A stretch of DNA of 64,000 nucleotides, from NCBI GenBank assembly GCA_001244265.2, contig LN717261.1, forward strand, positions 1,131,591-1,195,590, given 5' to 3'. Positions 9,873-60,800 of the stretch are shown piece by piece. The stretch is from Microbotryum violaceum (lineage: Eukaryota). Both the position numbers and the translations under genes were made by a program. Position 1 is the stretch's first letter. Every line of letters begins with the position of its first letter. Below the pieces are notes generated by a model. It saw nothing but the letters and a program-made list of their open reading frames with translations. It searched no databases and was not told the origin of the DNA.

Positions 9873-15414
<5,542 letters not shown>

Positions 15415-15812
15415 TTTATTGTGCCCGCCGACACACCCACCGCCGTCAAGACGAGGACCCCACTAGTAAGGTCGGCGCACATGGACGTCTCATCCTCCCT
15501 TGATGATTCTGTCATGAGCGCCGTTGACGTGGCCCCAGGGTACACTGGCAGATCCTTACTTAATTCTACAGATACTAGTCCCTCGCCGTCGCCGTCACTT
15601 GCCCCGCTCTCGTCGCCCACCACGTCCTCGACCGGGGACCGTCCCCCGACAACTCGGATGACCCGCTCGACCTCTTCAGCTCCAACACCGCGGTCCGTCT
15701 CAACCTGATGGACGTGCATCGGTCCGACGACGATACACTGGACGGCCAGGCACCAGCCGTTGACCCTGTTGACCCGCCCTCTGATGACGACTCTCCTGAT
15801 GAGATTGATTTC
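15415..15812 (+). pseudogene. Family B IN-RT linker fragment with the conserved 106-nt block (15466-15571)
   Basis: [16 protein letters not shown]...DSPDEIDF. Confidence 0.88.
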
Positions 15813-16041
15813 TGTGAGGAATCCACTCTCTGCTCGGCTCAGGACTTAGGCGCGCGGATCGAGCCAGGCGCACCGGCCCAGGGCTTAGGCGCGCGGAGGG
15901 AGCTGGGCGCATTGGCTCAGGACTTAGACGCGCGGAGCGAGCCTGGGAAACTTGGGGGCGCGAGGCTCTCACACTGTTAGCTTCCTATTCATCACTCTTG
16001 GCTAGAACTACATCGCTGATGTAGTAGAGTTGATCGAATAG

Positions 16042-16110
16042 GTATGTTGTAATGCATTCATCACTCTTGGCTAGAACTACATCGCTGACGTAGTAGAGTT
16101 GATCGAATAG
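16042..16110 (+). other. Putative 69-nt spliceosomal intron duplicating the LTR-B terminus
   Basis: AG|GTATGT...GCTGAC...GAATAG|GTTAT; removal regenerates the single-unit LTR-PBS junction seen at 34625. Confidence 0.65.
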
Positions 16111-18696
16111 GTTATAAGCCCAACGAGCTACCAGCCCGCCGCTCGCTCGCATTTTTCCTCGAGCCCAGCCACTCGAGCCGCCCACGTCCATCGCACCATC
16201 GCACAATGGATAGTCGCGACCCCACCACGCCTTCGTCCCCCAGGGACCCCAGCCCTCTTGCGTCTTCGATCAGCGATCAACTCGCTACCCTGCAGGCCCA
16301 GCTCGCCGCTCTGCAGGCCTCGCAGCCCCCTGCCGCCCCCGCCTCTGCCGCCGCTGCCTCGCAGCCCACTGCCGCCGCCGCCGCCGCCACCACCGCTTCA
16401 AAAGTCGTCTTTCCCAAGCACGCTCGCCTAGACGGCTCCAAGTCGTTCACGAACTGGTTACGCCAGCTCCGGCTCACGCTTCCGAATCAGATTCGTGGTT
16501 ACGTCCTTGATGGAGTTGTTCCCCCGACATGGACGGCCGACCAGCTGGCCGCTCATGACGACGCCGCGCGGGAAATTATCGTTGGCTCGATCGACTCCGC
16601 CGACGTCTCAGCAACCCTCGATGCCATCCCAAGCGACGACCTGTTGGCGCCACGCATCTTCGCCGCACTCAAGGCTCGTTTCGCACCGAACGACGCCACT
16701 CGCACCCTCGAATTATTCGCCCGCCTTTGGGACTTTCGGAAGATGCCCGCCTCGGTCGAGGCCTATGACACCTGGCTGTGCGAATACATGGCCATTGCTC
16801 AAGAGATTCGCGACGCTAAGACGTCGCTGAACGACGTCCTCGCCACCCACATCCTCGCCATGGTACCGCCCTGCCTAGACAGCTTCCGGCTAATGTTCAC
16901 GGACGAGCAGCGCGCCCAGCGCGAACTCCCGGAGCTCACGACCTTAACGGACCGTATCCGCGTTCAGCTCCGATCCGCCGGCCTCTCGGCTTTGCATTCG
17001 GCCATGCTCGCCGACGCCCCCTCTTGCCCCGCCTGCCGCGCCCCGGCCACCACCTGCGCGACTGCACTTCACGTGCAAAGCATCCGCCCACCGGCCCCTG
17101 CCGCCGCTGCCAAAAGCGAGGTCACTGGGCCCTCGACTGCAAGAACCGGGGCCAACAGACACGTACCAGCGACGACACCCAGGACGACTTGTCTTCCGCC
17201 ACGGCTCACCAACCGAACGTCGGATATTTTGCCTCCTGCCTCTTTGCCCGCCGCCAACTCCCGACCGATGCCTTCGTAGTCGACTCGGGCGCAACGACTC
17301 ACATGGTCGCCGACCGCTCCCTGTTCACAACTTATCGTCCGACGGCACATACCAAGATTGGCGGCATTTCCGGCGGTATCACGGCCATTGGTATGGGGGA
17401 TGTACCGTTTGTTGCCAACACCGGACACCCAATCACGTTGCGCGGCGTTCTGCACGCGCCGGGCCTTCACGTCAACCTTCTCTCCGTCTCTCGCCTTTGT
17501 GACACCGACCGCATTCGGCTTGCCTTCACCAGCGACAGCATTGACATCACCAAGGACGGCCAGGCCATCGCTCACGGTACACGGGTTAACGACGGTCTCT
17601 ACCTCCTGGACGCGGATCACACCAAATGTCAGCAGCTTGCCTTCCTCTCACGCTCTGAGTCTACCGTGCCCCTACTTACCCTCCACCGCTGCCTCGGCCA
17701 CCTTGCTCCATCCTCTATACAGAAGATGATCGCTGCGGGTTTGCTGGACGGTTTTGGGGCCGGGTACAGTGACAAAGACGTAGAGGAGTTTGCTTGCAAT
17801 GCTTGCCTTGGTTCCAAAGGCCATCGTCTTCCTTTTCCCGACTCGGAGTCACATTCCCCGAGAGACTTGGTCTCGTGCACAGCGATGTCCTGTCGTTTCC
17901 CACTCCGTCCTTGACCGGGAAACGCTATCTTGTCACCTTCCTTGACGACCACTCTCGCAAACTATGGGCATACGCAATCGATCACAAAAGCGACGTCTTC
18001 CCGACCTTCCAGACTTGGCTCGCCGAAGTGGAGTTAGAAACGGACGCGCGTCTACGGATCCTTCGCACCGACAACGGCGGCAAATACCGATCCAACGCGT
18101 TCACGGAGTTCTGCCAGTCCAGGGGCATTCGTCGCCAATACTCTATTCCATACAGGCCTCAGCAAAACGGTCGTGCCAAACGTGTCAACCTCTTTATCGT
18201 CGAGGGCGTCCTCGCCCTCCTTGCTGACTCCCACCTGCCGGCCACCTTTTGGGACGAAGCGGCTGCATATTTCGTTTATTGCAAAAACAGGTGCTCACAC
18301 TCAGCTTTGGCCAAACAGACTCCACAATTCGTTTGGAACGGCCAACGCACCATGACCACCGCCCTTCACCCGTTCGGCTGCGCGGCCTGGCTCATGGTCG
18401 CGCCGGACCTTTGCAGCAAGCTCGACCCCAAGGCCGCGTGCGTGATTTTTACTGGTTACGACCTCGCCTCCAAGGCTTTCCGGTTCTTCAACCATTCCAC
18501 CAACAAGGTTGTGCTTGGCCGAAATGCCACCTTCCTCGACGACGACTTCCCCGGCCTACCAGTCAACACGCCCGTCGATGCGGATGACGCCGAACGCCAG
18601 TTCGTCATTCCCGCCGACGCGCCAGCGCCTGACACCGCTGACACGCACGCCCCCGCCGCCACACCCGCCCCCGCCGTCAAGACGAGGACCCCACTA

Positions 18697-18802
18697 GTAA
18701 GGTCGGCGCACATGGACGTCTCATCCCCTCTTGATGATTCTGCCATGAGCGCCGTTGACGTGGCCCCAGGGTACACTGGCGGATCCTTACTTAATTCTAC
18801 AG
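18697..18802 (+). other. Putative 106-nt retained intron in the IN-RT linker
   Basis: GTAAGG...TACTTAATTCTACAG; almost invariant across A and B copies while the flanks diverge. Confidence 0.6.
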
Positions 18803-19548
18803 ATACCAGCCCCTCGTCGTCTCCGTTGCTCGCCCCGATTTCGTCTCCCGCCATGTCCTCAGGGCGGGGACCATCCTTCGAGGACTCGGATGATCCGCTT
18901 GACCTTCTGCACTCCGACACCGCGGTTCGCCTCCGCCTGATGGACGTACATCGATCCGACAACGACACCCTGGTCACACCCACACTCGCCGTTGGCCCCG
19001 GGCAGCCCTCCGACGACGACTCCCCTGATGAGATCGATTTCCTCTCTCGTCATCACCGCGCCTTCATCGCCACCGACGACGACGACCCTACCCTCGAAGC
19101 CATTGAGCCGGTCAAATCGATCACTAGCGACCCTCAGACCTGGCGTGAAGCGATGTCCAGCGACGAGCACGACCTCTGGGCTCAAGCTGCCTCCGACGAG
19201 TTCACCGCCATGCGCAACGATTTCAAGGTGTTCACTGTGATGTTGTCACGCCTGCTCAAGCGGTGGTAAGTCTCTGATCGAAGGACCAAGGGAGACCAGA
19301 CCAAGAAGTTGCTTGAGCAGGAGAGAAACCAGAGTGGGGCCATTTGGCTGGGCCCAAGTCAGCCCAGCCAAAGTCAGGCGCACGGACCTGGCCCAGGTGC
19401 AGAGACCAGGCCCAGAGTGGGAGAGCTAAGGTGGTGAAAAGTAGGCCAAAAGTGATCAAAACGAAGAGAGGAGGATGTTGAGGTAGGTACAAGATACAAG
19501 AAGGACATGAAGGAGATATTTGATCTCACACCCCCCCTACTTTGAGTA

Positions 19549-22500
19549 TCAGGGAGCACAGATACCGAGTCGACCGCGGTGCCAAGCAAAGAGGTCGCGT
19601 GACAATGCTTTGGTGAAGATGTCCGCTGTCATCTCACCAGTGTTGATGTACTGGACGACAATGTCGCCCATGGAAACCATATCCCGGACGAAGTGTTCGC
19701 GCAGGCGGATGTGCCGAGTCCGAGCATGAAATACCGGATTCTTGGTGAGAGCATTGGCGCCTTGGTTGTTGCCGTAGATGAGGACGGGCTTTGAAGACGA
19801 AAGGCCAAGCTCACCAAAGAGCTGACACAGAAAGATTGCCTCCTTACCAGCGTGTGACAGTGCGAGGTACTCGGCGTCACAAGTGGAGTCAGCAACGCGC
19901 GATTGAAGCCGGGAGGACCATGAGACGGCAGCACCTGCATAGACGAAAGTGTAACCCATGGTCGACTTGGAAGAGAGGACGCATGCACCCCAGTTGCAGT
20001 CGGAGTAGCCCAAGAGCGGTGCCGGATTCCCACGAGCGTAGCGTAAGCCGTGAGAAAGAGTGCCAGCGAGGTAACGGAAGGCGTGTTTGACAGCTCCCCA
20101 AGCAGCAGCGGAAGGCGAGTGAGAGAAGCGAGCCAAGTAACCGACGGTGTAAGCCAGGTCGGGCCGAGTACCAGTGGACGCGTACATAAGGGAACCAATG
20201 GCCTGCAGGTACCGAGTGCGATCCGGGAATGGGGTGGGCTGCAGCTCGACTTCGAGGCGGAGATCGGGCTGCATGGGCATGGCGACGGGATGGGCATCGG
20301 ACATTCCAAATCGGGCAAGGACGTCCTTGAGGTATTGTTCCTGACTCAGAGAGATGGAACCGTCTGGAGAGCGCCGGATCTGGATGCCGAGGACGTATTC
20401 TGCCTCACCGAGCCGTTTGACACCATAGCGCTGCTCAAGACCCTGAAGGGTACGCTCAATCTCAGGGAGAGAGGGGCTGATCATGAGCAGGTCGTCGACA
20501 TAGAGCGCAATGTAGTGGTGCACATCACCCGTTTTCCTGACGTAGACGCAGTGGTCGGATTCGGTGGCGACGTAGCCGAGTGCGCACAAGGCAGAGTCAA
20601 TCTCGTCGTTCCAGAGGCGACCGGCCTGGCGCAAACCATAGAGGGACCGATGCAGTTGGAGGACCTTGCCTGGCATGTAGATGCCATCAGGCACACGAAT
20701 GTACAGGGGTGCGTCGAGTCTGCCGTGCAGGTAGGCTTTGTCAATGTCGGCCTGGTGGACGTGGTACCCATGAGCAGCAGCAAGAGCCAGGAGTGCGCGG
20801 ATGGAGGTGAATTTGGCCACGGGTGCAAAGGTCTCGTCAAAGTCAATGCCAGAGCGTTGGGAGTCACCACGAGCAACGAGACGGCCCTTGTAGGACTTGA
20901 CTTGGCCATGCTGGTCGCGTTTGGTGCGGAAGACAAAGCGGGAGCCCAGGACCTTGGCGTCTGCTGGGACAAGGGACTTGTCAATTGGTGTGAACGCCGA
21001 AAAATCTCGCAAGAGTGAGTCAAACTCGTCGCGGGCCGCAAGACGCCATTCATCCGCTTGAGGAGTGGCCATGGCCGCTCGCCAGTGAGGTGGGTCGCGA
21101 GCGGGGGCAATCAGTTCCGCAGGGTCGGCGGGCGAGGTCTCAATGAGGGCGGCAGCGCCAGAGGCAAGGTAGGCCACGGCAGAGGGTGAGTGGAGTGCGT
21201 CATCCACGTCGTCGGGAAACTCCTGCGCCTGGCATAGCGAAGCAACATCGCGTGGGCGTGGCAGGAGATCGATCGGGTCCGGGGAGTCGGACCGAGCGGG
21301 TGAGGGTGGCGCTGGCAACGCACGGGAGGCCACGGGGCGCGGGGAAGGACAAGGCGTGGAGATGGCCGAGTCAGAGCTACCTTGGTCAGAGGCGCTTGAT
21401 GCAGGTGATTCCGGGTCAGGGAGCTCACGAGCAGGGGAGCCTTGGTCAGGGACAGGGGGTGCGAGCGAGTCCTGGTCAGGGACCTCGCGGGCAGGGGCGG
21501 GACGGTGCAAGCCCTGGTCAGGGCTGCCGGCACGGGTCAAGGTGGCTCAGTGCGAGGCGCGAGTGAGCGAGGGGAAGCAACGAGCGAAGGCTCAAGGGGG
21601 TCTACCTGGTCAGGGTATGCGTCAACAGTTACGGGGAGTGGGATTGGTTCAGCGCGAACGTCGGTGGCTGGCCGGAGTGCAGGGAACTCGGATTCACGGA
21701 AGACAACATTGCGGCTGAGTTGTATCCTGCGCGTGGACGGCTCGAAGAGTCGGAAAGCCTTGGCATGGTGGTCAAAACCAACAAACAGGAGGGGTACAGG
21801 CTTGGGGTCGAGGTCCGTGCGCTTGGCCGAGGGAAGGTGGTGCCAAGCGCGGCAGCCAAAGGCGCGAAGGGTGGAGATGTCAGGCGCAAAGCCATGCCAA
21901 CGAGTGTCGGGGATCTCACCACCAATGCCGGCGTGAGGCATCAGGTTTTTGCAGTGCACGTAGTACAAGGCAGCCTCACCCCAGAGGCGTGAATCAGCGC
22001 CAGAGGAGTAGAGCAGAGCAAGGATGCCCTCCTTGATGGTGCGATTGCTGCGCTCGACACGCCCATTTTGTTGGGGTGTGTAAGGGATGGTGAGTTCCCG
22101 ACGAATGCCTTTACTTGTACAGAAGTCGACAAAGTTGCGCAGAGTGAACTTGCCTCCATTGTCAGAGCGGATGGTCTTCACCTTGTTGCCGGTGGCATTC
22201 TCGACTTCAAGGATCCAGTCGCGAAGGCGAGGGAAGACATCACTTTTGAGTGCCAGGAGGAGACACCAGTGCTTGCGAGAGAAGTCATCAATGATGACCA
22301 GCATGTACCGATGTCCACCAAATGTAGGGCGAGGCATTTGCGCTACATCGACGTGGAGGAGATCCAGACGGCCAGAGGCGATGGACTTGGACCGGGCGAA
22401 GGGGAGGGCATGCGCTTTGGAAGCGAGACAAGCATTGCAGTAAAAATCCCGGAGCTCCTGATCCTTATACACCCAATCCACCCCAGTAACCAAGCCTCTC

Positions 22501-23863
22501 TGCACAATGTTTCTGATTTGCGCAACGGGCAAGTGCGCAAGGCGACGGTGCAGAGTCAGCAAGGACACTTTGGTAGGGATGGCGAGGAGGGCTTTGGGCG
22601 TACAGGGTGTAGGTCCAAGTGCCAAGGCGTACAGGTTGTTCCCGATGGCTTGAGCGGTAGCGACGACGGCACCCGAGGGACGGGCGATGCTTGCACAACG
22701 AGATGCGAAGGAGACGCGGTAGCCAAGTTGATCCAACTGGAAGACGGACAGCAGGTTGCATGGGAGATCCGGTACCAGGAGGACATTGGACACGGTGATG
22801 GGACCCGTTGAAGTCTGGATGCAAATGGTGCCGCAGCCGGTGGAAGGGAGGGAGCCGGCGACGCCTCCAACTCGCGGGCCTGCGACCGTGCGAAGCTCGG
22901 AAAAAAGGCCCCTGTCGTTCGTCATATGGCGATTAGCGCCCGAGTCAAGAAGCCAAGCCGATTTGCGAAATGGCGAAGGTGTTGCGAGGAGACAGGCCAT
23001 GAACGACACAGAGTTGGGTGTGTCCACTGCGGCTGGTGACGCGACTGGCTGGGAGGCCTTCTTCTCGGCGGTGCGACGAGCTCGGTAGGCGGCGGCCCAG
23101 GCGGGTGTCGGGGCATTCCCGAGCCAGTGCAACTTGCGACAAGACGGATTTGGGCACGGCCTTGAACAGCCGTGGCGGGCCTGCGGCGTGGCGACGGCGG
23201 CAACAGGAGTATCGACGGGGCGGGCTTTGACATCGCGGTAAAGGCGCGTGAAGATCTCGGTGGCGGAGGGCATCGCAGTGGAATCGCCCTGGTCAGCAAC
23301 AAAGGTGGTGCGCCAGGCGTCGAAGGACGAAGGAAGGCAAGCAAGCAAGTGCGAGGCAAGAAGGGCGTTCACGGTGACCTGCGAGTCCTGCAGCAGCCGG
23401 GCGTCGTTTTCGAAACTGTCGCGGAATTGCAGGAACAGGTCGGGAGTGACGGGCACAGGGTCAGAGCTGAAGAGGCGTTGGATGACCGGTAGCAGATCGA
23501 CAGCAGAGACGGTGCCGTAGCGTTCGCGAAGTGCCTGCCAGACCTTGGGTGCTGCGAGCGATTCGTCGAGGTAAGGTGACAGGCCCGGGAGGACAGTTTG
23601 CGAATCGACGGAGGCGCAAATGGAGGAGCAGGCGTAGTGGTCCCAGAGAGGGACATACGAAGCAGGCCAAGACTCGAGTGGTACGCCCGTGTTGAGGTAA
23701 CGGACGACGCCGGAGGGCAGGCGTGAACGGATGGCGAGGACCCAGTCTCGGTAGCCGGACGAGTTGCGAAGGCCGCAGAGTGGGTGGGCGGGCGCAAGGG
23801 CGGCGCATCGGGCGTGGGCTCGCGGAGCTTGGCTTCAGGCGTGGAGGCGCCGGCGTCGGACAT
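19549..23863 (-). pseudogene. Family C Gag-Pol polyprotein with a few frameshifts
   Basis: WLLDSGANRHM (PR), LHRRLAH...CNAC and RSDNGG (IN), ALYVDD (RT), YSDCNW (RNase H). Confidence 0.92.
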
Positions 23864-23956
23864 GTTGCGAAGGGTGAAAAAGTAGAGCGAAGGGCGGGCA
23901 CGGAGGTGGCCGCACTGGTAGCTTGGTTGGGCTAATAACCTGTGATGTTGTCACGC

Positions 23957-24166
23957 CTGCTCAAGCGGTGGTAAGTCTCTGATCGAAGGACCAAGGGAGA
24001 CCAGACCAAGAAGTTGCTTGTTACACACCTGCTCAAGCGTGGTAAGTCTCTGATCGAAGGACCAAGGGGGACCAGACCAAGAAGTTGCTTTTTACACACC
24101 TGCTCAAGCACTACAGTAAGTTACCACATCTAGAGGGTGAAAGATGATAGGAAGAGTAGTGCTCAC
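23957..24166 (-). repeat. Three back-to-back intron-like units (67, 71, 72 nt) in LTR-C U5
   Basis: CAG|GTGAGC...CAG|GTGTGT...CAG|GTGTGT...CAG; 210 nt equals the length difference between the two LTRs (505 vs 295). Confidence 0.8.
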
Positions 24167-25661
24167 CTGCTCAAGCGGTGGTAAGTCTCTGATCGAAGGA
24201 CCAAGGGAGACCAGACCAAGAAGTTGCTTGAGCAGGAGAGAAACCAGAGTGGGGCCATTTGGCTGGGCCCAAGTCAGCCCAGCCAAAGTCAGGCGCACGG
24301 ACCTGGCCCAGGTGCAGAGACCAGGCCCAGAGTGGGAGAGCTAAGGTGGTGAAAAGTAGGCCAAAAGTGATCAAAACGAAGAGAGGAGGATGTTGAGGTA
24401 GGTACAAGATACAAGAAGGACATGAAGGAGATATTTGATCTCACAGTTTCCCGGTCAAGGACGGAGTGGGAAATGACAGGACATCGCTGTGCACGAGACC
24501 AAGTCTCTCGGGGGAATGTGACTCCGAGTCGGGAAAAGGAAGACGATGGCCTTTGGAACCAAGGCAAGCATTGCAAACAAACTCTTCTACGTCTTTGTCA
24601 CTGTACCCGGCCCAAACCCGTCCAGCAAACCCGCAGCGATCATCTTCTGTATAGAGGATGGAGCAAGGTGGCCGAGGCAGCGGTGGAGGGTAAGTAGGGG
24701 CACGGTAGACTCAGAGCGTGAGAGGAAGGCAAGCTGCTGACATTTGGTGTGGTCCGCGTCCAGGAGGTAGAGACCGTCGTTAACCCGTGTACCGTGAGCG
24801 ATGGCCTGGCCGTCCTTGGTGATGTCGATGCCATCGCTGGTGAAGGCAAGCCGAACGCGGTCGTGTCACAAAGGCGAGAGACGGAGAGAAGGTTGACGTG
24901 AAGGCCCGGCGCATGCAGAACGCCGCGCAACGTGATTGGGTGTCCGGTGTTGGCAACAAACGGTACATCCCCCATGCCAATGGCCGTGATACCGCCGGCA
25001 ATGCCGCCAATCTTGGTGTGTGCCGTTGGACGATAAGTTGTGAACAGGGAGCGGTCGGCGACCATGTGAGTCGTGGTGCCCGAGTCGACGACGAAGGTGT
25101 CGGTCGGAGATGGTGGCGAGCGAGTAGGCAGGAGGCGAAATAGCCGACATTCGGTTGTTGAGCCGCCGATGAGGGTGTGTTGTCCTGGTTGTCGTCGCCG
25201 GTTCGTTTTTGGTCGCCTCGCGGTTTGCAGTCAAGGGCCCAGTGACCCTTCTTGTGGCAGCGACGGCAGGGGCCGGTGGGGGGGTGTTGAGCGCGTGAGG
25301 TGCAGTCACGAAGGCGGTGACCGGGGGCGCGGCAGGCGGGGCATAGGGATGTGAAGAGTCCACTCTCAGCTCGACAGAGGCGCCTCGATTGTCGCGCGCA
25401 CCCGCTAGCCCGCCCCCTTGCGGTGGAGACTTAGGTGCGCGCGACTGCCTCAGCAAGCAGGCGCCAGCGGACTCGGCGCGCGCCCGCTAGGCCGCCCCTT
25501 GAGGTGGCGACTTAGACGCGCACAGCTGCCTCGGCTCCCCAGCAAGTTCACCCGCGGCTGGGCCTATCCAGTGCGGGCCCCCTTTCTGTTTCTTAGCTTC
25601 CCTCTCACCACTTCTGTTCAACAATCAACCTCTCCTGACAGTAGTGGTGATTGTCTCATAG

Positions 25662-25868
25662 GTATGCTGAAATAGACCACTTCTGTTCAACAATCAACCT
25701 CTCCTGACAGTAGTGGTGATTGTCTCATAGGTATGCTGAAATAGACCACTTCTGTTCAACAATCAACCTCTCCTGACAGTAGTGGTGATTGTCTCATAGG
25801 TATGCTGAAATAGACCACTTCTGCTCAACAATCAACCTCTCCTGACAGTAGTGGTGATTGTCTCATAG
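25662..25868 (+). repeat. Three tandem 69-nt intron-like units at the LTR-A/PBS junction
   Basis: Each reads GTATGCTGAAATAG...CCTGAC...CTCATAG (25662-25730, 25731-25799, 25800-25868). Confidence 0.85.
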
Positions 25869-25896
25869 GTTATTCGCCCATCGACCTACTGCTGGC

Positions 25897-30399
<4,503 letters not shown>

Positions 30400-31822
30400 T
30401 GTGAAGAGTCCACTCTCAGCTCGACAGAGGCGCCTCGATCGTCGCGCGCACCCGCTAGCCCGCCCCCTTGCGGTGGGTACTTAGGCGCGCGCGACTGCCT
30501 CAGCAAGCAGGCGCCAGCGGACTCGGGCGCGCGCCTGCTAGGCCGCCCCTTGAGGTGGCAACTTAGACGCGCGCAGCTGCCTCGGCTCCCCAGCAAGTTC
30601 AACCGCGGCTGGGCCTATCCCAGTGCGGGCCCCCTTTCTGTTTCTTAGCTTCCCTCTCACCACTTCTGTTCAACAATCAACCTCTCCTGACAGTAGTGGT
30701 GATTGTCTCATAAGGGAGGCGGTAGCGAGCATGGCCGAGTGCGAGGTGGAGAGTCCCGCCGAGCGAAGTTGGACGCGAATGCGGTCGTCAGCGTCGTCAG
30801 CTCGGGAAGGTCGCGTTGGTGGCGTTGCTCGTCCGTGAACGTGAGTCGGAAGCTGTTGAGGCACAATGGGACCATGGCAAGCACGTGAGTGGCGAGTACG
30901 TCGTTGAGCAAAGTTTTGGCGTCGCGAATTTCTTGTACGATGGACATGTACTCGCGCAGCCAGTTGTCGTATGCCTCGACGGAGGCAGGCATCTTCCTGA
31001 AATCCCAAAGGCGGCGAACAACTCGAGGGTGCGGGTAGCATCGTCCGGTGCAAAACGAGCCTTGAGAGCGGTGAAGATGCGCGTGCTGAGAGATCGTCAC
31101 TGGGAATGGCGTCGAGCGTGGCCGAGACGTCCGCGGAGTCGATAGAGCCAACGATGAGTTCCCGGGCGGCGTTGTCACGGCGGCAAGCTGATCGGCCGTC
31201 CAAGTAGCAGGAACGATACCTTCGAGGACGTAAGCACGGACTTGATTCGGGAGCGCAAGACGGAGTTGACGCAACCAGTTGGTGAACAATTTGGGACCGT
31301 CGAGGCGAGCGTGTTTGGGAAACACGACTTTGGCTGAGGTAGCGGCGTTGGTCTGCGTGGCGGGGGCGGCCGGAAGTGGGGGCAGCGGTGGCGGAGACTG
31401 CAAGGCCTGCAGGGCAGCGAGCTGTGCCTGTAGAGTTGCAATTTGTGCGGCGATCGAGGATTCAGGGGGGCTGGGAGAATCCTTGGGGGGCGAGGGCGGT
31501 GCGGGAGCGGGAGAGTCGCCCATGGTGCAAAGGGATGTGTGCGGTCGAGTGGCTAAGCTCGAGGAAAAAACGCAAGGCGGCGAGGCTGGTAGCTCGTGGG
31601 CGGATAACCTATTTGATCAACTCTACTACGTCAGCGATGTAGTTCTAGCCAAGAGTGATGAATAGGAAGCTAACAACAAGAGAGCCACGCGCCTCAAGTC
31701 AGTGTGAGAGCCGCGCGCCCCAAGTTTCCCAGGCTCGCTCTGTGCGCCTAGCCCTGGGCCGATGCGCCTGGCTCGCTCCGCGCGCCTAAGTCCTGAGCCG
31801 AGCGGAGAGTGGATTCCTCACA

Positions 31823-37728: not shown

Positions 37729-48661
<10,933 letters not shown>

Positions 48662-48816: not shown

Positions 48817-53505
<4,689 letters not shown>

Positions 53506-54287
53506 GTCCGCGGAGTCGATAGAGCCAACGATGAGTTCCCGGGCGGCGTCGTCACGGGCGGCAAGCTGATCGGCCGTCCAAGTAGCGGGAACGACACCTT
53601 TGAGGACATAAGCACGGACTTGATTCGGGAGCGCAAGACGGAGTTGACGCAACCAGTTGGTGAACGATTTGGGACCGTTGAGGCGAGCGTGTTTGGGAAA
53701 CACGACTTTGGCTGAGGTAGCGGTGTTGGTCTGCGTGGCGGGGGCGGCCGGGAGTGCGGGGGCAGCGGTGGCGGGAGAGTGCAAGGCCTGCAGGGCAGCG
53801 AGCTGTGCCTGTAGAGTTGCAATTTGTGCGGCGATCGAGGATTCAGGGGGGCTGGGAGAATCCTTGGGGGCGAGGGCGGTGCGGGAGCGGGAGAGTCGCC
53901 CATGGTGCAAAGGGATGTGTGCGGTCGAGTGGCTAAGCTCGAGGAAAAACGCAAGGCGGCGAGGCTGGTAGCTCGTGGGCTGATAACCTATTCGATCAAC
54001 TCTACTACGTCAGCGATGTAGTTATAGCCAAGAGTGATGAATAGGAAGCTAACAACAAGAGAGCCGCGCGCCTCAAGTCCTCAGGCTGCAAACCTTGGGG
54101 CTGAGCCAATGGCCCAGGCTCGCCCTGCGCGCCTAAGTCCTGGGGCTGTGTGCGCCTGGCTCGCTCCGCGCGCCTAAGTCCTGAGCCAATGCGCCTGGCT
54201 TGTTCGCGCACCTAAGTCCTGGGCCGGTGCGCCAGGCTCGCTCCGCGCGCCTAAGTCCTGAGCCGAGCGGAGAGTGGATTCCTCACA

Positions 54288-54487: not shown

Positions 54488-55036
54488 GGCCTTTCGTCTT
54501 CAAAGCCTGTCCTCATCTACGGCGACAACCAAGGTGCCAATGCTCTCACCAAGAATCCGGTGTTTCATGCTCGGACTCGGCACATCCGCCTGCGCGAACA
54601 CTTTGTCCGGGATATGGTTTCCATGGGCGATATTGTCGTGCAGTACATCAACACTGGTGAGATGACAGCGGACATCTTCACCAAAGCATTGTCACGCGAC
54701 CTCTTTGCTCGGCACCGCGGTCGACTCGGTATCTGTGCTCCCTGATACTCGAAGTAGGGGGGTGTGAGATCAAATATCTCCTTCATGTCCTTCTTGTATC
54801 TTGCATCTACCTCAACATCCTCCTCTCTTCATTTTGATCACTTTTGGCCTACTTTTCACCACTCTAGCTCTCCCACTCTGGGCCAGGTCCGTGCACCTGA
54901 CTCTGGCTGGGCACTTAGGCCCAGCCAGCTGGCCCCTCTCTGGTTTCTCTCCTGCTCAAGCAACTTCTTGGTCTGGTCTCCCTTGGTCCTTCGATCAGAG
55001 ACTTACCACCGCTTGAGCAGGCGTGACAACTTCACA
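54488..55036 (+). mobile_element. Family C 3' end (RNase H tail, PPT, short LTR 54763-55036)
   Basis: [13 protein letters not shown]...GICAP*, G-run, TGTGAGATC...TCACA. Confidence 0.92.
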
Positions 55037-57895
55037 TAACCGAGGTCGCGAAGCGAAGCGTCGATGTGTCGATTCCAGATTCTGCCAGCTTGTTTGAGCC
55101 CGTAGATGGAGCGTCGCAGTCGGAGCACCTTATCGCCAGGAAGATCGAAGCCTCGCGGTGCCGTCATCCAGATGTCGTGGTCGAGGTCGCCGTGAAGGTA
55201 GGCTTTGTCGATGTCCGCTTGGTGTACATGGAGGCCATTGGTCGCCGCCAGCGCAAGGAGGGAGCGTATTGAAGAGAAGCGTGCGACCGGTGCGAAGGTT
55301 TCAGTGAAGTCGATGCCGTCACGTTGGCGATTGCCTTGCGCGACCAGCCGTGCCTTGTGTCCAGTGATCTCGCCGAGTGCGTTCCGTTTTGTTTTCCAGA
55401 CGAATTTGGACGATACGATGGTCGCGCCCGCAGGTACTGTAGAACGGTCATCAATGGTGTAGACCTTGAAGTCGTCGCGCATGGAATTGAACTCATCGGC
55501 AGCGGCCTTGGCCCATACCTCACGTTTGTCGCCCGACATCGCTTCTCGCCAGGTCTGTGGGTCGCTCGTAATGGATTTGACGGGTTCGATGGCCTCGGTG
55601 TCAGAGGTGTCGTCGTCAGTCGCAATGAACGCGCGGTGATGGCGAGTGAGGAAATCGATTTCGTCCGGGGACTCGTCGCGAGAGTGGCGTCCAATGAGAT
55701 CAAGTTCGTGGGGCGACTCCTCAGCCGATGCGGGCTCGCGGTACGTGCTGAAGTCTGGGGGTTGGGTGTCCATTGGGTCGAGGGGAGCCTGGGGCTGTGA
55801 GCCGATGAGGTCAAGAGGATCGGCGGAGTACTCAGATTCAGTGGGTAAGGCCGAAGGTGACGACGATGCAGCCAACGACGGTGAGGGCGCGGACGATGGT
55901 GCAGCCGACGGGGACAAGGCCGGTTCAGGAGACAGTGACGAGGACGGCGCAGGCGACGGTGACGCGGGCGATTCGGCATCTGTAGAATTAAGCAAGGTTC
56001 CGCCAGTGTACCCTGGGGCCACGTCAACGGCGCTCATGGAAGAATCATCAAGAGGGGATGAGACGTCCATGTGCGCCGACCTTACTAGTGGGGTCCATGA
56101 CTTGACGGTGGTTTGAGGGTCGGCGAAGGGAGCGCTGGCGAAGTGCGTGACATCGTCTGGCTCGGCGGAGTTGCCACGTAACCCGGGGAATTCGGTGTCA
56201 AGGAAGGTGGCATTTCTGCCCAGGGTGACCTTCTTTGTTGTAGGGTCGTAGAAGCGGAAGGCTTTGGAAGCCAAGTCATAGCCGGTGAACAGAACGCGAA
56301 CCGCTTTCGGGTTGAGTTTAGAGCGAAGTTCGGGCGCAACCGTGAGCCAAGCCGCACAGCCGAACGGGTGAAGCGCGGAGGCTGTGGTGCGTCCGCCCTG
56401 CCAGACCGAGTTCGGTGTTGCCTTGTCAAGAGCCGAGTGTTGAAACAGGTTCTTGCAGTAAACGAAGTAAGCCGCAGCCTCCTCCCAGAATGTCTTGGGT
56501 AGATGGGCGTCCGCCAGAAGGGCAAGAATACCTTCAACAATGGACCGATTGACCCGCTCTGCCCGACCGTTTTGTTGAGGCGTGCGAGGGATAGAGTATT
56601 GTCGACGCGTACCTCGCACCTTGCAGAACTCCGTGAATGCTCTCGAGCAATACTCGCCACCATTGTCAGTTCGGAGGACCTTCAGTGTTGCACCTGTCTC
56701 GAGCTCGACCTCGGCAAGCCAAGTCTTGAACACGCTGAAGACTTCGCTTTTATGTCCGATCGCGTAGGCCCATAGTTTGCGCGAGTAGTCGTCGAGGAAT
56801 GTGACCAGGTATCGTTTGCCAGTCAAGGAACGCTCCGGGAGGGAAAGTACATTGCTGTGTACGAGGCCGAGTCTCTTGGAGGAGTGCGAATCCGAATCGG
56901 GAAAAGGAAGACGATGGCCCTTGGCGCTGAGGCAAGCATTGCAGACAAACTTCTCTACCTCTTCGTCACTATATCCGGCCCCGAGACCCTCCAGCAAACC
57001 AGCGGCAACCATCTTCTGTATGGACGACGGTGCGAGATGGCCGAGGCAGCGGTGGAGAGTCAGCAGGGGCACGGAAGACTGTGAACGAGAGAGGAGAGCA
57101 AGGTGCTGACATTTGGAATGATCAGCGTCGAGCAAGTAGAGTCCCTCGTCAAGCCTCGTGCCTTCAGCGATGTTGTTGCCGTCTTTGTCGATGTCAATGC
57201 CGTGTTTCGTGAAGGCAACACGGACGTCGTCGGTGTCGCAAAGTCGAGAGACCAAGAGGAGATTGACGAACAGGCCGGGAGTGTGCAGCACGCCAGTGAG
57301 CGTGATCGGATGGCCCGAGGCGGCAACACCAGTGAGCGTGATCGGATGACCTGAGGCGGCAGCGAAGGCGATGTTTCCCGTCCCGATGGCGTTAATACCC
57401 CCTGCAATACCACCAATCTTCGTAGGAGCGACGTGTCGATAGTTTGTGAACAGTGACTTGTCCGAGACCATGTGCGAAGTGGCGCCTGAGTCAATGACGA
57501 AGGAGTTGGCGCAAAGCTGGCGACAATGAGCGAGAAGGCTGGTAGCAAGACATCCGACATAGTGTTGCGAGTCGGCGGTTGAGTCGTCCGTGTCGGGTTT
57601 GTTGCTGTTCTCGAGAGCTTTCTTGCAGTCAAATGACCAGTGATTCTTCTTGCAGGAGCAACAAGGGCCTGGCGGCGGGTGTTTTGCTCTCACAGTGCAC
57701 TGCGCCACACGGTGCGAAGGGCTGCGACAGGCAAGACACGTGGGACGGGTAGGACATGACGACGAGGCAAGGAGGACCGATTGAGTGCTTGGGACGTTGG
57801 TGGACCAAAGTTAGACATGCATGCAATCGGCAAGCAAATTGATGGCAGGGAGAGATCTTTGGGTGCGCTGTTCATGGGTGAACGACGCCTTGAAG
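55037..57895 (-). pseudogene. Family A internal fragment: about 900 open codons from gag C-terminus through PR, IN, linker to RT N-half
   Basis: ORF 55003-57708; truncated by LTRs at both ends. Confidence 0.93.
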
Positions 57896-60800
57896 TATAA
57901 GACAATCACCACTACTGTCAGGAGGGGTTGATAGTCGAACAGAGTGATGAGGAGGAAGCTAAGAACAGACAGGAGGCCCCTGCTGAGATAGGCCCAGTCG
58001 CGGGTGAAATTGCTAGCGCGCTAAGACAGTCGCGCGCGTCTAAGTCCCCAGCGCCGGGGGCGGGCTAGCGGGCTCGCGTAACGACCGAGGCGCCTCTGCC
58101 GAGCTGAGAGTGGACTCATCACACCCCCCCCCCCCCCACACAAATGCGAGGCAGACCCAAGCCGTGGGTGTCGAGTGCGCAAGCCGAGAGCATAGCAATG
58201 CATGGAAAAAATCTTCGGGCCAAGTGCCTTGGTAAAGATGTTGGCCACCATGTTGCTTGTCCCCACGTGGGAAAGAGAAATCTCACCCCGATTCACCATG
58301 TCCCGAACGAAGTGCTCACGCAGACGGATATGTCGAGTCCCGGATGCACGGACAGGGTCTTGTGCGACAGCGGCAGCAGCTTTGTTGTCAGTGTAGATGT
58401 GAGCTGGGATACCAGACTGGACATGGAGCTCCTCAAGCAGCTGACTGAGGTAGATCCCTTCCTTGCCAGCATGCGAGAGAGCGAGGTATTCCGCGTTGGT
58501 GGTAGAGTCGGCGACCCGCGATTGACGCTTGGAGGACCAGGATACAGCAGAGCCAGCAATGTAGAAGACGAAACCCATGGTGGAGACCGATGTGTTGACG
58601 CAGGCACCCCAGTTTGCATCGGAGTAACCTACCACGCCCGTGATGCCCATCTTACCACGAGTGTAGAGAAGCTCGTTGCGATACGTGGCTCGGAGGTAGC
58701 GTAGGACGTGCTTGACGGCAATCCAATGGCGCTGACCCGGGTTGTTGGCGAAGCGGGCCAGGTAAGATACGGCAAAGGCGATGTCGGGGCAAGTGCCAAG
58801 CGAGATGTATAAGAGCGAGCCGATTGCCTGTAGATACCATGACCTGATCTGTTCCGTGCCTTGACCCGGAATGGCGGTGAGCGAAAGACCGGGGTCATTG
58901 GGACGGTAGCGCCGCGAGTCGTAGTGTCAAAGTGGAACCGAGCGAGCACGTCCATGATGTACCGTTCCTGGCATAGGGCGATAGAGCTGTCGTTGAGCCG
59001 CCTGATCTGGATGCCGAGGATGTACTTGGCCGGTCCAAGGCGTTTTACACCGTAACATTGTTCCAGGCCCAAGATGACGTGTTCGATCTCGGCCAGGTCC
59101 GGACTGATCATCAGAAGGTCGTCGACGTACAGTGCGATGTAGTGTGAGCTTTGACAATCGTCGAGCCGAGAGTAGACGCAGTGATCGGTGCCCGTCGCCG
59201 TATACCCGAGAGCACGAAGCGAAGCGTCAATGTGTCGATTCCAGATGCGGCCGGCCTGTTTGAGCCCGTAGATGGAACGGCGCAGTCGAAGCACTTTGTC
59301 GCTGGGAAGGTCGAAGCCGCGCGGTGCCATCATCCAGATGTCGTGATCGAGGTCGCCGTGAAGATAGGCTTTGTCGATGTCCGCTTGGTGTACATGCAGG
59401 CCGTTGGCGGCCGCGAGCGCGAGGAGTGAGCGTATCAAAGAGAAGCGGGCAACGGGCGCGAACGTCTCGTTGAAGTCGATGTCGTCGCGTTGGCGATTGC
59501 CCTGCGCGACGAGCTGTGCCTTGTGTCCAGTGACGTCGCCGAGTGCGTTCCGTTTGGTTTTCCAGACGAATTTGGACGATACGATGGTCGCGCCCGCAGG
59601 TACTGTAGAGTGATCGTCGATGGTGAAGACCTTGAAGTCATCTCGCATGGAATTGAACTCGTCGGTGGCGGCCTTGGCCCATACCTCACGCTTGTTGCTG
59701 GACATTGCCTCGCGCCAGGTCTGTGGGTCACTGGTGATGGACTTAACTGGTTGAATGGCCTTGGCGTCAGACACGTCGTCGTCGGTTGCAATGAATGCAC
59801 GGTGATGTTGGATGAGGAAAGCAAGTTCGTCCGGCGATTCGTTGTGAGAGGGGTGCCCAATGAGGTCGAGTTCGTCAGGAGACTCCTCAGCCGATGCGGG
59901 CTCACGGTACGTGGTGAAGTCTGGGTGGTGCACGGCCGGTGGGTCGAAGCGAACCTGGGGCTGTGAGCCGATAAGGTCGAGAGGATCGGCGGAGTATTCA
60001 GAGTCAGTCGGTAAAGCCAATGGTGACGATGACGCAGCCGACAATGTGGAAGGCACAGGCAATGGCGACGCGGGCGGCTCAGGAGATGGTGACGAGGACG
60101 GCGCAGACAACAGCGAGGAGGACAGTTCGGCATCTGTGGGGTTAAGTAAGGTTCCGCCAGTGTACCCTGGGGCCACGTCAACGGCGCTCATGGGAGAATC
60201 ATCAAGTGGGGATGAGACGTCCATGTGCGCCGACCTTACTAGTGGGGTCTTCGTCTTGATGGCGGGGGCGGGCGGATCGGCAGGAACAACGACGTAGCGT
60301 TTGGTGTTGGCCAAGTTGACGGGTGCGTTGTCCTGCAGGCCGGGGAAGTTGTTGTCCAAGAAGGTGACATTTTGGCCAAGTACAATCTTGTTGACGGAGT
60401 GGTCGAAAAAACGGAAAGCCTTGGAGGCGAGGTCGTAACCGGTGAAGATCACGCGCCTGGCTTTGGGGTCGAGCTTGTTGCGAAGGTCCGGGGCAATCGT
60501 GAGCCAGGCGGCGCAGCCAAACGGGTGGAGGGCAGTGGCAGTGGTGCGTTGGGGGTTCCAAGCGGATTCTGGAGTCTGTTTGGCTAAAGCGGAGTGTGGG
60601 CATCTGTTTTTGCAATAAACGAAATACGCAGCCGCTTCATCCCAAAAGGTGGCCGGCAGACGGGCGTCCGCAAGGAGAGCGAGGACGCCCTCGACGATGG
60701 AGAGGTTGACACGTTCGGTGCGACCGTTTTGCTAAGTACGCGGCCGCCTCATCCCAAAAGGTGGCGGGCAAGCGAGAATCGGCGAGGAGAGTGAGGACAC

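Follow-up and report, generated by a model that had tools for sequence, protein, structure and literature searches.

A 106-nt segment that begins with GT and ends with AG lies in the linker between integrase (IN) and reverse transcriptase (RT) of Ty1/copia elements of the anther-smut fungus Microbotryum violaceum, and it occurs in seven copies within the window analysed here, a 64,000-nt stretch of contig LN717261.1. This block is a real and unusual conserved module, and it is probably functional at the RNA level. We give about even chances to the reading that it is a cis-acting, structured and mostly retained spliceosomal intron, whose occasional removal would shift the reading frame before RT. 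The original prediction had described the block as a retained-intron switch. Much of that description is upheld by nucleotide conservation, splice-like ends, a shift of frame ahead of RT and the parallel with copia splicing in plants and flies, whereas the role it suggested for a basic shifted-frame tail is not supported, and splicing itself stands as a candidate process.

Within the window, LTR retrotransposons are nested in one another. The elements bearing the block are placed in Ty1/copia by the domain order protease (PR), IN, SH3-like domain, RVT_2; Pfam matches in 55006-57810 run in the order Pol_BBD, gag_pre-integrs, rve, SH3_retrovirus and RVT_2. LTR pairs are located at 25346/30396 and 43436/48314. 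The nearest relatives come from Microbotryum, and all 120 listed homologues of the A-type polyprotein belong to Microbotryum silenes-dioicae, M. saponariae or M. intermedium. The open pol frame of the B1 element (17773..19269, plus strand) covers the integrase core, the SH3-like domain, the linker and the start of RT, and the element is interrupted at 19235 by another copia insertion. This family D element (19236-24445, minus strand), whose 280-nt LTR stretches are identical, has a pol frame split in the linker at about 21540, where no block-like intron candidate was seen. A distinct copia element of lower GC content (48817-53509, minus strand), with one 1344-codon frame and LTRs 98.6% identical, also has an IN-RT linker without a block-like intron candidate. 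Tandem units of 55-69 nt mark the LTR/leader ends of A and B elements (25607-25870 on the plus strand, 15987-16112, 43436-43561 and 48314-48439), and the unit borders of the A-element leader repeat read GT..AG with a CTGAC motif. An intron candidate of 78 nt, GTGAGC..CTGAC..CAG, is in frame in the A-family gag (26191-26268, plus strand) and absent from B. One LTR (42385-42704) is apparently common to a 3' fragment of an A element (to 43439) and the next A element, in a tandem arrangement.

All seven copies are found where the original prediction had placed them, each with GTAAGG at its start and YAG at its end, and a word-size-7 BLAST of the window returned no eighth. On the plus strand, the B1 copy lies in frame in the linker (18697..18802), a second copy belongs to a short B-type fragment (15466..15571) and a third to the A element at 25346-30712 (28280..28385). 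The minus strand carries copies in the A element at 37729-42704 (39852..39957), in the B2 element at 43436-48602 (45683..45787), in an A fragment with a 935-codon open frame (55980..56085) and in a recombinant whose upstream part is B-like and whose downstream part is A-like (60134..60239). Six copies measure 106 nt, and the B2 copy has lost one nucleotide (105 nt). The division into two families, A and B, proved too simple, as at least four lineages are present in the window: A, B1, B2 and the B-left/A-right recombinant. The proposed difference of about three positions between A and B is exact for the B1 copy against each of the three A copies. Across all 21 pairs the copies differ at 2-9 positions, and the differences between families (3) are similar to those within them (2-4). 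Identity sets in about 9 nt upstream of the GT and ends 1-2 nt past the AG, as predicted, while the adjacent 106-nt windows are 46-60% identical upstream and 66-68% downstream between A and B. None of the nine window sites with the upstream 9-mer is a precisely intron-less copy. An A-type copy at 12020..12050 (minus strand) has lost some 300 nt, the block among them, from between two 11-nt direct repeats; it was considered as a spliced retrocopy and rejected, being a microhomology deletion and not a precise intron loss.

Conservation of the block exceeds what the encoded protein requires, as the synonymous-site scan proposed with the original prediction makes clear. Taking the third position of each identical codon as a synonymous site, B1 and A differ within the block at 1/31 sites, and four further lineage pairs at 2/30, 3/31, 0/19 and 0/18 (for B2 pairs, only the 22 codons before the B2 deletion were counted), against rates of 0.25-0.53 for the flanks; in the flanking frame the lineage pairs span 22-58%. 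Binomial P values range from 2e-9 to 0.004 over the five pairs, which are not independent of one another. The block is also the most similar 106-nt window between A and B anywhere in the element, with 100-103 identical positions, compared with 90-93 in the best window elsewhere and medians of 71-77; the windows on either side of it are among the least similar. Eight of the 14 distinct substitutions among the copies fall at codon positions 1 or 2, which points to constraint, or recent ancestry, at the nucleotide level, and conservation is no weaker in the middle of the block than at its two ends.

Beyond the window, the 36-residue block peptide is 92-100% identical in proteins of M. saponariae and M. 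silenes-dioicae, and the lineage-specific alleles of the block are common to the same lineages in M. silenes-dioicae. Within the A lineage, the block is 94% identical across species and neighbouring residues 61-64%. Identity to M. intermedium falls to 44-58% for the block, with 19-50% for the adjacent 36 residues and 63-79% for the SH3-like domain. In a search for distant copia relatives among 261 proteins, convincing matches to the block peptide came only from Microbotryum or were near-identical; a metagenome scan returned 33 loci, all of them distant integrases at 23-38% identity that were left out of the comparison, and a viral sequence scan found no related locus.

The ends of the block resemble splice signals. 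In the B1 copy, the donor-like A|GTAAGG (18696..18702, plus strand) matches the U1-type GT donor present in all seven copies, and it could also supply the 5' strand of a 7-bp closing helix. A putative branch point, TTGAC, occupies +59 to +63 (18755..18759) and is invariant in all copies; a second branch-like motif, CTTAC, is found at +90 to +94 in six of the seven, lying in B1 within CCTTACT (18785..18791), which is the exact complement of the donor. Both candidates, TTGAC and CTTAC, fit only the loose branch-point consensus YTNAY. An acceptor-like CAG follows a pyrimidine-rich stretch (18800..18802), and an alternative CAG (18767-18769) would define an intron of 73 nt. These acceptors, at +73 and +106, are the two that the copies share, and both give lengths of 3n+1. 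Upstream of RT, A- and B-type copies share no canonical GT donor other than that of the block (6/6 aligned copies), and none precedes it. Donor-like and branch/acceptor-like motifs at both edges of an arbitrary 116-nt span occur at 0.33% of 127,500 window positions, in a test devised after the motifs had been seen. The GC content of the block is 55-56%. The minus strand at 18694-18803, which holds the block and 4 nt more, can also be read as Helitron-like (TC...CTAG between A and T); we judge this to be chance, because without these 110 nt a frame that is otherwise open would be interrupted, and coding sequence lies on both sides.

Public gene models and contigs were compared at these ends. 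Of the 120 listed proteins, 42 read straight across the block, 41 jump away at the residue just before the GT, 11 continue with Val and then diverge, and 26 lack the motif. These proteins are gene-finder models, in which the jumps end at many different in-frame acceptors, and the donor is well scored by gene finders in three species, including in nine of ten M. intermedium matches; such cuts show a good donor score and are no proof of use. Public contigs over 39300-46700 (runs X1, X6, X3 and X7, not recorded as RNA) match the block ends at none of 15 joints listed (of 21). The intron-like leader repeat of A elements, which would have served as a positive control, is likewise unspliced in X1 and X6, and contigs lose rare forms. 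An X1 contig runs unspliced across the donor and an X6 contig across the acceptor, and two loose ends in X3 carry the B1 acceptor with intron letters; the stretch compared held A and B2 copies, while the runs had been found with the B1 copy.

Unspliced, the block reads through in frame, and since 106 is 3n+1 its removal shifts the frame before RT, both as originally stated. The tail predicted for B is likewise confirmed in B1, where 45 codons follow the junction before a TGA at 18938-18940 (plus strand). Translation of the shifted frame stops after 29-271 codons in all seven copies and reaches RT in none: it ends after 29 codons in the decayed fragment at 15466, 45 in B2 as in B1, 58 in the decayed A copy at 28280, 232 in the recombinant and 270-271 in the other two A copies. 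Stops are rare in the +1 frame all along these GC-rich elements (one A copy has 10 in 934 codons), and its open runs reach 238-239 codons in unrelated parts of the element too. A functional shifted tail was rejected on these grounds, its length being unconserved, and the Arg-rich sequence looks incidental, probably a by-product of Ser/Pro codons. Two of the A copies have a TGA four codons before the donor (28268-28270, plus strand; 39967-39969, minus strand) where the third has TGG, so that those two end after integrase even when unspliced; this reflects either shared decay or a lineage without RT.

Folding predictions add a further layer, and together with the second branch-like motif and the +73 acceptor they extend the first reading of this sequence. 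In the isolated block, the donor strand is predicted to pair over 7 bp with CCUUACU, enclosing a long interrupted hairpin of 17 pairs (18704..18754) and a small hairpin that would bury the +73 acceptor (18764..18782); the small hairpin appears in isolated folds, and its region is not conserved in M. intermedium proteins. Three copies folded as sense-strand blocks gave z scores of -2.5, -3.6 and -3.0. The main stem of the long hairpin has a probability of 0.97-1.00 in 9 of 10 folds of the B1 copy and the A copy at 28280, and the hairpin stays high in most wide-context folds. With flanks of at least 60 nt, the closing helix drops to 0.09 or less in all seven copies and the small hairpin is mostly gone; the helix is favoured only when the flanks do not exceed about 15 nt, and five of its seven donor/branch pairs are automatic, GTAAG being complementary to CTTAC. 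Substitutions fall in paired columns in 3 of 14 cases, against 6.7 expected (P 0.035), and break a pair once, against 3.6 expected (P 0.06), in a comparison that is somewhat circular as the structure was derived from the same sequences. The seven DNA copies contain no compensatory changes, and Rfam 15 gave no covariance-model match to region 18500-19000 at E up to 5. The long hairpin is thus a solid prediction of the folding model, and sequestration of the donor a possible alternative state only.

Diverged relatives provide a separate view of the fold. The M. intermedium proteins P0041, P0137 and P0267 read through a version of the block one codon shorter, in which Val-Arg still marks the donor and Thr-Asp the acceptor and the length remains 3n+1. 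Covariation was deduced from these annotated proteins, with the one-codon gap placed by hand and the small hairpin, where the gap falls, excluded. P0137 has three amino-acid-forced double changes, two of them in the long hairpin and the third in the closing helix, all of which keep their pairs (permutation P about 0.003); P0267 has one pair-keeping double change (P 0.26), and P0041 has none, with 2 of 24 pairs that cannot form. Pair 17-49 is impossible in all three. For one double change, both arms lie in CpG context; since an extract of PMC4469406 reports RIP-like hypermutation of copia elements for Microbotryum, both arms may have been hit, and this change is possibly mutational. As read from the protein sequences, the double changes are suggestive of selection on the fold.

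The block also serves as a crossover site between families, because it is the stretch in which they are most similar. Upstream of it, the recombinant copy is at a synonymous distance of 0.22 from B1 and 0.54 from A, and downstream at 0.58 from B1 and 0.31 from A; the same B-left/A-right arrangement occurs in 10 of the 39 read-through public proteins matching the pattern. The original prediction had named recent exchange between families as the observation that would count against it. Such recombinants do exist, but exchange leaves the covariation and the lineage-specific alleles unexplained and is less likely as the sole cause. The corresponding explanation, in which a neutral tract is homogenised by template switching or gene conversion and the splice-like ends and fold are chance or mere short homologies at the crossovers, draws on these recombinants, on the similar divergence between and within families and on the much weaker conservation in M. 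intermedium. It would need several separate exchanges with the same two endpoints in A, B1, B2 and the recombinant, and it predicts neither the avoidance of stems by substitutions nor the pair-keeping double changes; moreover, the alleles common with M. silenes-dioicae predate the species split, while adjacent residues have drifted. We therefore consider it unlikely. Constraint on the protein is more improbable by far. The IN/RT cleavage site must fall somewhere within the integrase-RT linker, and the 36 residues could be where the protease cuts or could form a functional motif at the end of integrase, as their near-identity in M. saponariae and M. silenes-dioicae would allow. The synonymous-site result largely refutes this, unless constraint is combined with exchange; over half of the substitutions fall at codon positions 1 and 2, and the peptide has diverged in M. 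intermedium and has no convincing distant copia match.

The strongest of the competing explanations keeps selection on a cis-acting RNA structure but does away with productive splicing: the block would act in packaging, dimerisation or nuclear export or as a U1 site that suppresses early polyadenylation, and its acceptor-like end would be incidental. Consistent with it, the long hairpin is the sole context-robust structure, and the middle of the block is conserved like its ends, which is more than a plain intron requires. There are precedents as well: extracts of PMC5580714 describe a splicing-independent anti-termination role of U1 binding in EVD, and extracts of PMC12786077 describe structured export elements in IAP and MusD. 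Against it, conservation stops 1-2 nt past a YAG that is preceded by branch-like motifs, and the acceptor codons are retained in the diverged M. intermedium proteins. We rate it as rather unlikely. A bolder form of the intron hypothesis, which we put forward tentatively and hold to be less likely than not, is that of a self-gating coding intron in the pol frame: the donor would pair with its own branch region, the RNA would toggle between a protected genomic form and a spliced Gag-PR-IN form, and the block would be a selected module that acts as a hinge for IN/RT swaps between families.

For the mostly retained intron that we prefer, the following course of events may be proposed. RNA that retains the block would be the genome and would encode the full Gag-PR-IN-RT-RH polyprotein, so that each transposed copy would keep the block. 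Its removal from a fraction of transcripts would shift the frame before RT, giving either a Gag-PR-IN protein without RT/RH or an early-stop RNA that is decayed or ends early, and either product would lower RT relative to Gag. The long hairpin, together with optional pairing between the donor and the branch region, would set how frequently the spliceosome acts. Selection on the fold, splicing and its purpose in this scheme are what the sequence patterns suggest to us.

Several known systems resemble this arrangement in part, as judged from extracts of the papers cited. The barley Ty1/copia element BARE1 has an alternatively spliced intron of 104 nt whose splicing is demonstrated (PMC3735527). 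Like the block, it is a short, facultative, 3n-breaking intron of nearly equal length in a single gag-pol frame, and its removal causes a frameshift and the loss of downstream enzymes. The BARE1 intron, however, is U-rich, lies at the end of gag and leaves Gag only, whereas the block, at 55-56% GC, follows integrase, would keep PR and IN, and is conserved and predicted to fold along its whole length; its splicing is predicted only. In EVD and other Arabidopsis Ty1/copia elements, the shGAG introns span protease and average about 300 nt, and splicing in EVD is linked to premature termination where integrase begins (PMC5580714). EVD shares with the elements described here a conserved U1-type donor in a single-ORF copia, the need for retention in genomic RNA and an early stop upon splicing, but A and B have no shared donor at the protease position. 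The block, which comes after the integrase SH3-like domain, thus departs from EVD and BARE1 in position, and it agrees with them, as far as translation can tell, in a frameshift and stop before RT. Drosophila copia (a 2950-nt splice), the Ty3/gypsy element CRR (rt spliced out) and Ogre, as described in PMC3735527, are further cases in which splicing of LTR-retrotransposon RNA alters RT output, with rt lost in CRR; their introns remove long coding stretches or lie between ORFs, while the block has 106 nt and RT would be lost by frameshift. In yeast, splicing is promoted by zipper and downstream stems that were probed in living cells, for the most part in long host introns (PMC12350175). A donor-branch stem and a branch-acceptor stem are also the predicted layout of the block if TTGAC is the branch point, but the block, as a candidate intron, is short, lies in coding sequence and must stay in most transcripts. 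No description of the element was found in the literature searched, which covered few subscription journals.

The block matters for annotation, as public gene models are cut at its donor and continue from a variety of in-frame acceptors. Bursts of copia elements are described as common in these genomes in an extract of 10.1101/2022.08.03.502670. A single-ORF copia element must make more Gag than enzyme and must shield its genomic RNA from the spliceosome, and the splicing solutions compared here from the literature are those of plants and flies, acting at the gag/protease end. If our reading is true, these fungal elements would add a further solution, a structure-gated intron downstream of integrase, and it would offer a compact and testable model for the retention of an intron by an element that replicates through RNA, as well as an explanation for a recurrent crossover site between families.
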